Of a DNA stretch of 64,000 nt, positions 57,106 through 60,100 are shown piece after piece. The DNA is from Dictyostelium discoideum (Eukaryota). A program made the translations under genes and the position numbers. Within the stretch, counting starts at the first letter, position 1. Every line of letters starts with the position of its first letter. The notes under the pieces are model-generated. The model was not told where the DNA came from and made no database searches. It saw only the letters and a list, made by a program, of their open reading frames with translations. The stretch spans positions 1,632,001 to 1,696,000 of the forward strand of contig CM000152.2 of the NCBI GenBank assembly GCA_000004695.1, in the 5' to 3' direction.

Positions 57106-60100
57106 ATGGCAGAATCATTCCAACAATTAGGGGTTGGATCAAAGTCAAATGAAAGATCTTTTTTCTCAAAATTCTTTGGCACAGATGATTCACAAAAAGA
57201 TTTTGGGCCATTGCCTGAAATTGAATATAGCGATGAACAAAGGTTTAATCCTTATCCAGCCATTTATGAAAAGAAAAACAACAACAACAACAACAACAAC
57301 AACAACAACAACAACAACAACAACAACAACAACAACAACAACAACAATAATAATAATAATAATAACAATAGCAATGGCAATGGCAATAGGTCAAATAGTT
57401 CTTTAAATAATAGTAATAATAATAATCAAGTTAGAAGAACTCATTCACCAAGTGTCTCTAATAAATCCGATGAAAGTAATACGACAAATACAAACACAAA
57501 CATTACGACAAATACAAATATTACGACAAATACAAATACCAATACAAATACAAATAGTACAAATAATGACACAAGTTCAAATGTAACACAACAGCAATTA
57601 CTTACAAATCTTGGTCAAAGTAAAATTATTAGTGCATTAAAAACAAAATTTCAAAGACCATTACCGCCTGTTGATGATAAAGTTTGTATTTTTTTATTTG
57701 GCATATATATATATATATATTTTAATAATAACTCTATATTTACAAACTTCTTTTGTTTTTTTATTTTTTTATTTATTTTTTAGAAATTTTGGATGCCAGA
57801 TCATTCAAGTGCAGTTTGTTATGAATGTTCAGAAGAATTTACAACATTTAAGAGAAGACATCATTGTAGATTATGTGGTCAAATATTTTGTTGGAAATGT
57901 TCACAAAAGACATTGACAGATGGTAAAGGAGAAAGAGTTAGAGTTTGTAATTTTTGTTATAGAAGATATATGGCACCTGATGATTTAGATATGGAGGGTT
58001 ATCATTATGATCCTATCACTGGTACTGTTATATCATTAATAACTAATAATGATGATGGTACTAATTTAAATAATGGTAATGGTTTAATAAAGTTGGATGG
58101 AAGTACTCACAATATGAATGTTTCATTAGGTAATAGTGGAGATAATAGTTCTTTTGTTCAATCTCCAAATAATAATTTTAGTCAATCACCAACATTTTCT
58201 CAACAACAGCAACAACAGCAACAGCAACAACAACAGCAACAGCAACAACAACAACAACAACAACAACAACAAACGACTGGTGTAATGAGTGGTTTAAATC
58301 CATTTTCAAATTCAACTCTATTATTTGGTAGAAATAATAATAATAATAATCAACAACAACAACAACCAATAATTGAAGAGGATAAACAATATTATGGTGA
58401 TATTAATACAAGTTATAATAATTCATATTTTAATAATAATGGTTTTAATAATTTTAATAATGAACATTATAATAATACCAATTTTAATGCTACAAGTTTA
58501 AATTTGAATAGTCAACTCCATTCTAATCTATTGGCAAATACAAATGGTGAACTTTTTTATGACAATAGTCAACACAGTATTAGTAACTATGGTAATTTAG
58601 ACCATCATCAACAACAACAACAGAGTAATAGTCATGGTAGTTTAAGTAAATTTTCTTTAAACTTCCAATCACCATTTAAAATTAGAAATAATAGTAATGT
58701 TGATCAAACTTCATCATAAATAAATAATAATAATAATAATAATAATAATACAAATAATAGTGGAGGTGCCACACCTTCAAATACACCATCTGGTTTAATA
58801 TCACCAATTGTGGGTGCTCCTTCAATTTTAGATCCAAATAAAATGATTTTCTATTCAGATCAAGAGGGAAACTATGATAATTTGGATGACTATGAAACAT
58901 CCTCAAGCGATGGTTCAGATAATGATAATGAAGATAATCATTTGAAATCATCTCATTCCTCAGCAAATGATTTAGGTACTAGCAATACAGTTTCAACAGG
59001 TGAGTCTAACTCTGAATCTAAACTTTCTTCATCATCTAATGATATTTCTATCCATCATCATCACTATCACCACCATCATCATCATAGTCATGGAAATTTA
59101 TTAAAGAGTAATTCATTAACACCACTAAATCTTAATAATAATAATATTATTATTAATAATAATAATATTAATAATAATAACAATAATGATAATGGTAATG
59201 ATGATAATAATAATAATAATAATGATAATAATAATAATACAACAATAGAGGTAGACCCAAGACATTCAATGCCATCAAAAACATCAAATACCTCTTTTTC
59301 AATGGCATCATTACCATCTATTTTTAAACTACCAACAATTGGTAGAAACAATAATAATAATAATAATAGTGGCAGTGGTAATTCACAATATTTATCAGCA
59401 AATTCAAATGCAAGTAATTCAATTTCACCACCAAATTCAGCAAGAGGTTCAAGTAGTAATCCAAATAGTATGACACCAACACCAACATTATCATCTTCTT
59501 TTTCAAATTTACCAAATGCTGAAACTTCACCACCATCATTAGTAAAAGCCAAACAACAACAACAACAACAACAACAACAACAACAACAACCACAACCAGT
59601 TTTACAACCAACTATACATCATCCTTTAAAAACATCATTACCAATGTTTTCAACTCAATCCCCACCACCACCAACCAACCAATTGGCTCAATCTACAAGT
59701 ATGGCACCTCCACCATCAATATTTTCACCATTGGGTAAATTACAAGCTCTATCACACCCATCGTCATCATCAAATAACCAACAACAACAGCAACCTCAAA
59801 TTGTTAAACCAATTATTATAGCACCAAATTCATTATTCTTTAGTGATCCATCAATTGTTTCATTAAAAAGTCATCCAAAGACTACAAACAAAACAAAGTT
59901 TTTAGAAAAATATCCATTACCAAAAAAATATTATGAAAGTACAGAGAATATTATAGATACATTTGGATTTAAACGTACACCATCAACAGAAGGTAATCTC
60001 TTATCACAAATGTTGGCAACATCAAAACAAAAAGAATTTGATGAAAAAGAAAGATTAAAAATTTCAAATAATCCACAAATGTCTGTTTACATTCAACATA

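Follow-up and report, generated by a model that had tools for sequence, protein, structure and literature searches.

A probable base-call error and an intron drawn around it at the in-frame stop codon of the Dictyostelium discoideum PIKfyve gene

PIKfyve of Dictyostelium has been described as a protein with a FYVE domain at its N-terminus, a CCT-like domain, a Cys/His-rich region and a C-terminal PIPK domain (PMC6382210). In cells that have lost it, endosomes are swollen, killing is defective and sporulation is aberrant (PMC6382210, PMC8417116). A PIKfyve-GFP fusion with a C-terminal GFP, made from a coding sequence that was PCR-amplified from Ax2 cDNA, localises and rescues the knockout (PMC10309190). 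A DpnII site has been placed at "nt 7,044 in gene DDB_G0279149" (PMC8417116). The gene analysed here lies at the end of a 64-kb window of D. discoideum CM000152.2, to which all coordinates refer as forward-strand positions; all features are on this strand. It is the PIKfyve/Fab1 phosphatidylinositol-3-phosphate 5-kinase gene pip5k3 (DDB_G0279149), and it agrees with the described PIKfyve/Fab1 in start ATG, 8,288-nt span, DpnII site and domain order. In dictyBase, pip5k3 is treated as one gene on chromosome 3, at 1689106-1697393 (8,288 nt), with its start at ATG 57106, and the GATC at genomic nt 7044 from this ATG coincides with the published DpnII site. The window gene differs from the PIKfyve gene of another assembly in having a TAA in place of a TTA.

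This other assembly, the only one used for independent comparison, is the chromosome-scale GCA_054883475.1 of the same species (locus on CM142509.1, hereafter L004), which is plausibly the AX2-214 Nanopore and Illumina assembly of PMC12745789. L004 aligns to window positions 44541-64000 with 99.63% identity across 19.4 kb; comparison with the window also reveals homopolymer shortenings in L004 itself. Its PIKfyve gene is annotated with 8,288 nt and a 2,696-aa product. Removal of a 102-nt and a 95-nt intron from the L004 gene leaves an 8,091-nt coding sequence of 2,696 codons, which has no internal stop and begins at the ATG matching 57106. Pfam places all three signature domains in this single chain: the FYVE zinc finger (PF01363, E = 3.1e-18, residues 195-254, window 57790-57969), Cpn60_TCP1, the CCT-like domain (PF00118, E = 8.8e-24, residues 989-1261, window approximately 60172-61085, spanning intron 2), and PIP5K, the PIPK catalytic domain (PF01504, E = 2.5e-33, residues 2417-2580), which is seen in L004 and lies 3' of the window end. 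A representative library contained 470 homologues at E <= 1e-30. In the closest relative, P0008 (68% identical), a single chain carries both CCT and PIP5K; FYVE is undetected in the P0008 model, which translates the finger out of frame.

In the window, exon 1 (57106-57681, 192 codons, delimited from the open reading frame list and the coding sequence rebuilt from L004) extends from the start ATG to ...PPVDDK. It is followed by intron 1 (57682-57783, 102 nt, GTTTGT...TTTTTTAG, 11.8% GC), the removal of which fuses ...DDK in frame to KFWMPDHSS with the WxxD motif of the FYVE finger. Exon 2 (57784-60249, 2,466 nt, residues 193-1014 of the 2,696-aa protein) is fully open when translated from L004, and is best read as one continuous coding exon in which a long low-complexity linker lies between the FYVE finger and the CCT-like domain. 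The first-pass annotation of the window had noticed a clean GTAAAT...AG intron 3' of ORF 58810-60312. This is intron 2 (60250-60344, 95 nt, GTAAAT...AAATTAG, 4.2% GC), a phase 0 intron that is followed by the CCT-like exon. This exon 3 starts at 60345, stays open as far as the last position of the window, 64000, and continues past it. The remainder of the CCT-like domain, the Cys/His-rich region and several low-complexity linkers are encoded there.

The sole interruption of exon 2 in the window is an in-frame TAA at 58717-58719. At the middle position of this codon, 58718, the window has an A and the aligned L004 sequence a T, which converts the stop to TTA (Leu504). The first-pass annotation had stated that ORF 57793-58719 (308 aa, with the FYVE finger) and ORF 58810-60312 share a frame and that a lone TAA separates them. 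Both statements are correct, since the two starts are 1017 = 3 x 339 nt apart, and since translation of 57784-60312 in one frame yields a single stop at 58717-58719 and is otherwise open over 842 codons. The frame is already open from 58720, not merely from 58810. One stop within an open frame of about 2.5 kb, with strong codon periodicity directly 3' of it, is more than chance would produce. Two explanations had been offered, a PIKfyve gene interrupted by either an error in the reference or a nonsense allele on the one hand, and two separate genes on the other, with a sense codon at the stop position named as one observation that would speak against the latter. L004 has such a codon, TTA (Leu), and its 2,696-aa product corresponds to a continuous open reading frame with two introns. 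The first explanation is thus supported, and the stop does not split two genes.

We consider it likely, with a probability of roughly 0.7, that the locus harbours one ordinary single PIKfyve gene, that the TAA is a base discrepancy, most likely a base-call error of the reference, and that dictyBase has drawn an intron around the stop. The functional allele would then have T at 58718, with TTA for Leu504, and the A in the window would most likely stem from a wrong base call in the assembly used as reference. We infer that it is an error rather than the true allele of the sequenced strain. Exon 2 would run unbroken from 57784 to 60249, from the FYVE finger through to the CCT-like domain. With its 120-nt "intron" (58646-58765, GTAAAT...GGAG), the dictyBase protein model would bypass the stop at the expense of 40 residues that are probably translated.

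Composition and conservation point to coding sequence on either side of the TAA, including the region 5' of the first downstream in-frame ATG (58843). The stretch 58762-58842 (GGATPSNTPSGLISPIVGAPSILDPNK), which is located between the stop and this ATG, has GC fractions of 0.48/0.63/0.07 at the three codon positions (hypergeometric p = 1.4e-5), a signal that neither of the other frames shows. The encoded SILD...FYSDQE.NYD, also 5' of ATG 58843, aligns with P0008 residues 314-339 (E = 8e-4). The GC fraction of 58740-58830 is 0.32-0.38, and the whole gap between the TAA and ATG 58843 spans 123 nt of 30-38% GC with strong codon periodicity.

The existence of the drawn intron can be read from residue numbers. 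The phosphosites S658, S886 and S2143 of dictyBase are residues 698, 926 and 2183 of the continuous open reading frame, a shift of exactly 40, whereas S103, encoded 5' of the interval, is not shifted. A shift of 40 residues equals 120 nt, and 58646-58765 (GTAAAT...AATAGTGGAG, 40 codons, about residues 480-520) is the sole 120-nt in-frame GT..AG pair that spans the TAA, with phase 1 at both ends. This interval is thus evidently what the dictyBase model removes, and the dictyBase protein should have 2,656 aa, compared to 2,696 aa for the continuous frame. The UniProt entry for DDB_G0279149 is presumably also 2,656 aa long. Phosphopeptides from either side of the TAA are listed under one protein identifier.

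The window and L004 also differ elsewhere. Positions 52716-52921 are another probable low-quality patch of the window and include a frameshifting extra base, and isolated differences are found at 57132, 59305 and 59925. At 59305, the Ser of L004 agrees with the outgroup and the window has Ala. Ala has been reported at this position, within TSNTSFSM[A/S]SLPSIFK, in a phosphopeptide from lab cells, a hit that is ambiguous because a change from Ala to Ser and an oxidation of the neighbouring Met add the same mass; subject to this ambiguity, not every difference between window and L004 is a window error. Two word-index protein searches returned neither D. discoideum PIKfyve nor a close relative, and one of them was swamped by poly-N/Q words. 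Exact-product look-ups in public short-read assemblies gave no match for the 308-aa FYVE ORF, the exon 1 ORF, or three TAA-terminated products cut at their 5' ends (starts 58336, 58339 and 58246); these look-ups carry no information, since short-read contigs break within CAA/AAT repeats and the look-ups for TAA-terminated products accordingly rest on guessed contig ends. A metagenome scan with a 39-mer around 58718, with N at the variable base, returned no match, and the literature yielded nothing useful on a cloning primer spanning 57132 or a supplementary gene schematic.

The TAA could also be a real nonsense allele that is peculiar to the sequenced stock. This stock would then produce a truncated fragment with FYVE only, and full-length PIKfyve scarcely or not at all, or would be hypomorphic. 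Some of the isolated differences at 57132, 59305 and 59925 may be real strain differences, and the window Ala at 59305 is the residue of the reported lab-cell phosphopeptide. However, PIKfyve loss has strong phenotypes (PMC6382210, PMC8417116) and the parental lab strains in this lineage behave as wild type, phosphopeptides have been detected 3' of the TAA, and a functional C-terminal GFP fusion was obtained from Ax2 cDNA (PMC10309190). Moreover, for a particular gene of a lab stock to acquire a nonsense mutation should a priori be much rarer than an error in a reference base. In view of these arguments, we regard a nonsense allele as unlikely.

Alternatively, the TAA could lie inside a genuine spliceosomal intron or exitron, either 58646-58765 (120 nt) or 58694-58765 (72 nt), and would then be harmless with either base. 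Both are in-frame GT..AG intervals across the TAA. The first-pass annotation had concluded that no usable in-frame intron exists. It was right that the donors GTAAAT (at 58646, rather than about 58648) and GTAATG (58694) are both phase 1, and that the AATAG acceptor ending at 58760 requires phase 2 and is out of phase, but it missed a second AG at 58764-58765 (GTGGAG|GT) in phase 1. Its "GC-rich 145-nt intron" is in fact 138 nt long (58694-58831) and has 28% GC. Two other acceptors can be set aside. TTTTAG at 58831 (for introns of 138 or 186 nt) would excise strongly periodic sequence, cut the SILD motif and misfit the 40-residue shift; AATAG at 58760 would need a phase 2 donor, and there is none in the approximately 300 nt 5' of it.

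For the interval 58646-58765, the donor GTAAAT is the hexamer of the real intron 2, the dictyBase numbering implies excision of exactly these nucleotides, and the sequence is fairly AT-rich (82.5%). The drawn intron might rest on transcript evidence. The acceptor argues in the opposite direction. Dictyostelium acceptors usually conform to (T/A)AG, with use of the first suitable AG. The interval ends in GAG, with the better AATAG 5 nt 5' in the wrong phase, and so departs from this rule. By comparison, both real introns of the gene, and plausible candidates in the window (which are not independently validated), end in TAG or AAG; clean introns in the window are too few for a model of their own, and these splice-site comparisons are qualitative. 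The GC content of the interval, 17.5%, is above the 11.8% and 4.2% of the real introns. Once T is placed at 58718, the interval has no in-frame stop, as is the case for 1.1% of shuffles, and a spliced interval would also have to be a multiple of three. Its codon periodicity is weak (p = 0.056). Splicing would delete KFSLNFQSPF, which matches KFILNTTSMFQSPF in P0008 (motif KF.LN..FQSPF, with a score that some 2.4% of shuffles attain). Finally, the L004 annotation has no intron at this place, and its 2,696-aa length fits only the 102-nt and 95-nt introns. Because of the GAG acceptor, the open frame and the conserved motif that would be removed, the interval looks like coding sequence and the drawn intron like an annotation patch, which we infer not to be spliced. 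Genuine splicing of either interval appears quite improbable.

In a combination of the two preceding alternatives, the TAA would be genuine in the lab stock, as a nonsense allele masked by splicing of exitron 58646-58765, from the GTAAAT donor to GAG in preference to AATAG, so that full-length PIKfyve would still be made. The dictyBase model would then be right for that strain. We consider this very unlikely.

The other explanation offered by the first-pass annotation, two separate genes that would split the Fab1 architecture in an unusual way, fares worse. It posits that a small FYVE protein ends at 58719 and that translation of a CCT/kinase protein without FYVE starts at ATG 58843, as the window taken at face value would suggest, with its stop and an in-frame ATG 41 codons on. 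However, the 123 nt from stop to ATG, periodic and of 30-38% GC, are unlike Dictyostelium intergenic DNA, and there is no AT-rich intergenic spacer. Conservation with P0008 begins 5' of ATG 58843, and L004 has a sense codon at the position of the stop. FYVE, CCT and PIP5K are found in one chain in four of the five nearest homologues scanned (P0009, P0012, P0013 and P0015). The single 8,288-nt gene of dictyBase and the functional C-terminal GFP fusion do not fit a split either, and the literature treats PIKfyve as one gene (PMC6382210, PMC8417116). The claim of two genes is hardly credible in the light of these data. Programmed translational readthrough of the TAA to full-length protein would profit from the shared frame on either side, with nothing specific beyond that, but TAA followed by A is the strongest eukaryotic termination context, the sense codon in L004 makes readthrough unnecessary, and its probability is close to negligible.

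If the stop is a reference base-call error, as we consider likely, there is no new biology at this locus, and the Fab1/PIKfyve of Dictyostelium is of the usual single-chain kind. The A at 58718 of the reference should probably be corrected to T. From the protein model in wide use, 40 real residues (about 480-520) are probably missing, including a motif that is conserved in a sister species. Restoring them would move all downstream residue numbers by 40, for example those of S658, S886 and S2143. Proteomics searches against the current model cannot find peptides of the missing segment. If the interval is translated, the expected peptides are FSLNFQSPFK and the junction-free NNSNVDQTSSLINN...SILDPNK.

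Three known situations can be compared with this locus. FYVE-less Fab1 paralogues exist, such as plant FAB1C and FAB1D, as separate paralogous genes with their own starts. The downstream product of the two-gene reading would resemble them in having CCT and kinase domains without FYVE. Unlike in FAB1C and FAB1D, coding sequence here already precedes the first ATG, and the other assembly lacks the stop. Exitrons are, like 58646-58765, multiples of three, coding-like and bounded by GT..AG. Unlike an exitron, this interval has a GAG acceptor behind a competing AATAG, and the independent annotation leaves it unspliced. The third comparison is with reference base errors that are masked by patch introns. 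In these, as here, one substituted base puts a stop into the frame of an exon that is otherwise open, and the gene model dodges the stop by a short in-frame GT..AG interval that has poor splice signals and resembles coding sequence. Most likely, the TAA and its 120-nt "intron" are a standard form of this artefact and nothing unusual.

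The PIKfyve gene (pip5k3, DDB_G0279149) starts at the ATG at 57106 on the forward strand and runs past the window end. A 102-nt intron (57682-57783) joins exon 1 to exon 2, which begins at 57784 (KFWMPDHSS...), and a second, 95-nt intron (60250-60344, GTAAAT...TAG, phase 0) links exon 2 to the CCT-like exon, which is free of stops up to the window end. In the ORF listing, exon 2 appears as two pieces, an ORF with the FYVE finger and then an N/Q-rich tail (57793..58719), which ends at a TAA (58717-19), and a downstream ORF (58810..60312). Reading of 57600-59100 and the listing confirm that both are in one frame, as the first-pass annotation had noticed; its lone TAA (the single '*' in a one-frame translation of 57784-60312, otherwise open throughout) and its intron leading to the CCT-like exon are also borne out. 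Both phase-1 donors that it had considered, GTAAAT (58646) and GTAATG (58694), are present, and the AATAG acceptor ending at 58760 has the wrong phase for them, as noted. However, it was wrong that no acceptable in-frame acceptor exists: a second AG at 58764-65 (GTGGAG/GT), of phase 1, had been overlooked, and creates in-frame GT..AG intervals of 72 nt and 120 nt with these donors.

We favor, with a probability of about 0.7, a single gene with a continuous exon, a base error in the reference and a patch intron in the gene model. An erroneous A at 58718, in place of T (TTA, Leu), would interrupt exon 2, and the model would hide the resulting stop in an in-frame pseudo-intron (58646-58765). The sense codon that the first-pass annotation regarded as support for a single gene is found in an independent D. 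discoideum assembly (L004; GCA_054883475.1, CM142509.1, 6.43 Mb), in which the locus was retrieved via a single-exon neighbour gene (54583-56169, minus strand). Alignment to window 44541-64000 gives 99.63% identity, with differences mostly in A/T homopolymers that are shorter in L004. PIKfyve differs by four substitutions, two of them synonymous (57132, GGG to GGT; 59925, AAA to AAG), one changing Ala to Ser (59305, GCA to TCA), and one turning the TAA into TTA (58718, A to T). The flanks of 58718, including an (AAT)9 run, show no other difference. With a mismatch rate of ~1.3e-3 per base over the whole alignment, an L004 error at exactly this position that yields a sense codon is very unlikely, and TTA is therefore taken as real there. 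The L004 gene is annotated with 8,288 nt and a product of 2,696 aa. Removal of only the 102-nt and 95-nt introns leaves an 8,091-nt CDS (2,696 codons and stop) without internal stop, and Pfam places FYVE (195-254), Cpn60_TCP1 (989-1261) and PIP5K (2417-2580) in one protein.

L004 is plausibly the AX2-214 assembly reported from Nanopore and Illumina data, since its identity to the window resembles the 99.5% described for AX4 and AX2 over a 104-kb chromosome 3 locus (PMC12745789). At seven sites (46246, 46572, 46679, 51495, 51924, 52026, 56726), only the length of intergenic A/T runs differs, the window being 1-10 bases longer, which is typical of long-read homopolymer compression or of real length variation. 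Across 53958-56269, L004 and the window do not differ at all, whereas two Logan contigs (SRR28564541, SRR26869268) have 7-8 mismatches and 3-4 gaps over ~2 kb of flanks around an identical 528-aa neighbour protein. These contigs probably stem from other strains or have noisy AT-rich ends. In 52716-52921, at the intron 1/exon 2 start of a forward-strand gene (52072..54506), ~20 substitutions and small indels cluster in an otherwise near-identical 19-kb alignment. The window has an extra A at 52887 and needs a frameshift, whereas L004 has one uninterrupted frame (NESNTLIFESILYTLSPVFLNDKSTFNIDDSLITVNG... / 'NESNTLIFESILYTLSPVFLNDKSTFNIDDSLITVNGTLILNDQ'). One of the assemblies, probably the window's, may be of low quality here, or the tract may stem from gene conversion in a gene for a repeat-rich secreted protein.

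The published gene can be matched to the same locus. A REMI insertion has been mapped to a DpnII site 'at nt 7,044 in gene DDB_G0279149' (PMC8417116), and the L004 gene has GATC at exactly 7044, counted from the ATG that corresponds to window 57106. The dictyBase protein DDB0234209, 'pip5k3 on chromosome 3 position 1689106 to 1697393' (PMC6397043 supplement), spans 8,288 nt, as the L004 gene does. Its phosphosites S103 (NSSLNNSNNNNQV), S658 (TSNTSFSMASLPS), S886 (GFKRTPSTEGNLL) and S2143 (STSLSSSANNSPI) (PMC6397043 supplement) are residues 103, 698, 926 and 2183 of the continuous 2,696-aa ORF, a shift of 0 on the 5' side of the stop and of exactly 40 on the 3' side. Forty residues are 120 nt, and the sole in-frame GT..AG pair of this length across the stop is 58646-58765, which the dictyBase model thus evidently splices out. 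It follows that the AX4 reference shares the window's TAA. The UniProt entry is presumably 2,656 aa long, that is 2,696 minus 40. The dictyBase peptide also has the window's Ala at 59305 in exon 2. There, the closest retrievable relative (P0008, an outgroup) has Ser (SFSMSSLPSIFK), as L004 does. For the published phosphopeptide with Ala, mass spectrometry may not tell Ala from Ser next to Met, whose oxidation gives the same mass change as Ala to Ser.

The first-pass annotation had left a reference error and a nonsense allele side by side. That PIKfyve is interrupted stands, in view of TTA in L004, and the error now ranks above a private allele, which is unlikely. A true nonsense codon would turn the reference stock into a PIKfyve mutant, an improbable state for the strain that serves as standard wild type in developmental work. 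Knockouts that remove regions 3' of the site have strong phenotypes in Ax2 and Ax3 (PMC6382210), and phosphopeptides from either side of it were obtained from lab cells (PMC6397043 supplement). PIKfyve with C-terminal GFP, amplified from Ax2 cDNA, localized to early macropinosomes and phagosomes and rescued the knockout (PMC10309190), so that Ax2 mRNA lacks an in-frame stop there.

Slightly less probable still is a genuine intron or exitron at 58646-58765. The GTAAAT donor is good and the dictyBase model uses the interval. However, gene finders routinely introduce in-frame pseudo-introns to dodge stops, and the model by itself is therefore weak evidence. The interval ends in a GAG acceptor, 5 nt downstream of an AATAG whose use would shift the frame, and its GC content is 17.5%, compared to 11.8% and 4.2% in the two real introns. 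Once 58718 is read as T, its coding frame contains 0 stops and another frame 17, an openness seen in just 1.1% of composition-preserving shuffles, before a length divisible by three is demanded. Splicing would remove the KFSLNFQSPF motif common to P0008, and the L004 annotation leaves the interval unspliced.

Two genes, or readthrough, are hardly credible: a split Fab1, as the first-pass annotation had considered, is contradicted by the L004 sense codon and by codon periodicity and conservation 5' of the first in-frame ATG (58843). In 58762-58842, before this ATG, GC content by codon position is 0.48/0.63/0.07 (hypergeometric p 1.4e-5), a pattern not found in its other two frames, and no AT-rich spacer of intergenic type is seen. 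The sequence 3' of the TAA thus reads as coding for the same protein as the upstream part. P0008 is one single protein of 1,991 aa, 68% identical over the CCT/CHK region. Its SILDQDDITSLVFYSDQEVNYD aligns with SILDPN---KMIFYSDQEGNYD (E = 8e-4), so that conservation starts upstream of 58843, and 5' of the stop KFSLN----FQSPF pairs with its KFILNTTSMFQSPF (score 40, against 28.6 +/- 4.9 for shuffles, 48 of 2,000 of which reach it). Four further near homologues have FYVE, Cpn60_TCP1 and PIP5K in a single chain. A domain scan of the P0008 model detected no FYVE domain, because the finger is translated out of frame: residues ~108-146 read its first half in the wrong frame, and FGCLIIRVQFVMNVLHYLQHLKEDIIVDYVVKYFVG matches the ORF that the FYVE exon of the window has in the +1 frame (57671..57916, forward strand). 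The loss is due to a mis-set intron-1 acceptor in the P0008 annotation.

A metagenome scan gave no match, and protein word-index searches did not find close relatives. The very long low-complexity tracts of PIKfyve (57277-57370, 58200-58272, 62555-62660, 62680-62795, 62845-62910), with poly-Asn runs of at least 30 residues, a Gln run of ~24 and a (NENK/NENE)n block of ~38 residues, probably break short-read contigs, which would account for the lack of matches when exact products, some with guessed contig ends, were looked up in public short-read assemblies.

The apparent split of PIKfyve is probably a familiar artefact, a single-base reference discrepancy under an in-frame pseudo-intron. It probably calls for one corrected reference base and for a protein model lengthened by 40 residues, which shifts all residue numbers downstream. 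No new kind of feature is involved. Dictyostelium has a single PIKfyve orthologue, with a FYVE domain at the N-terminus, a CCT-like domain, a region rich in Cys and His, and a kinase domain (PMC6382210). The gene in the window is this known PIKfyve/Fab1, and its architecture is canonical.
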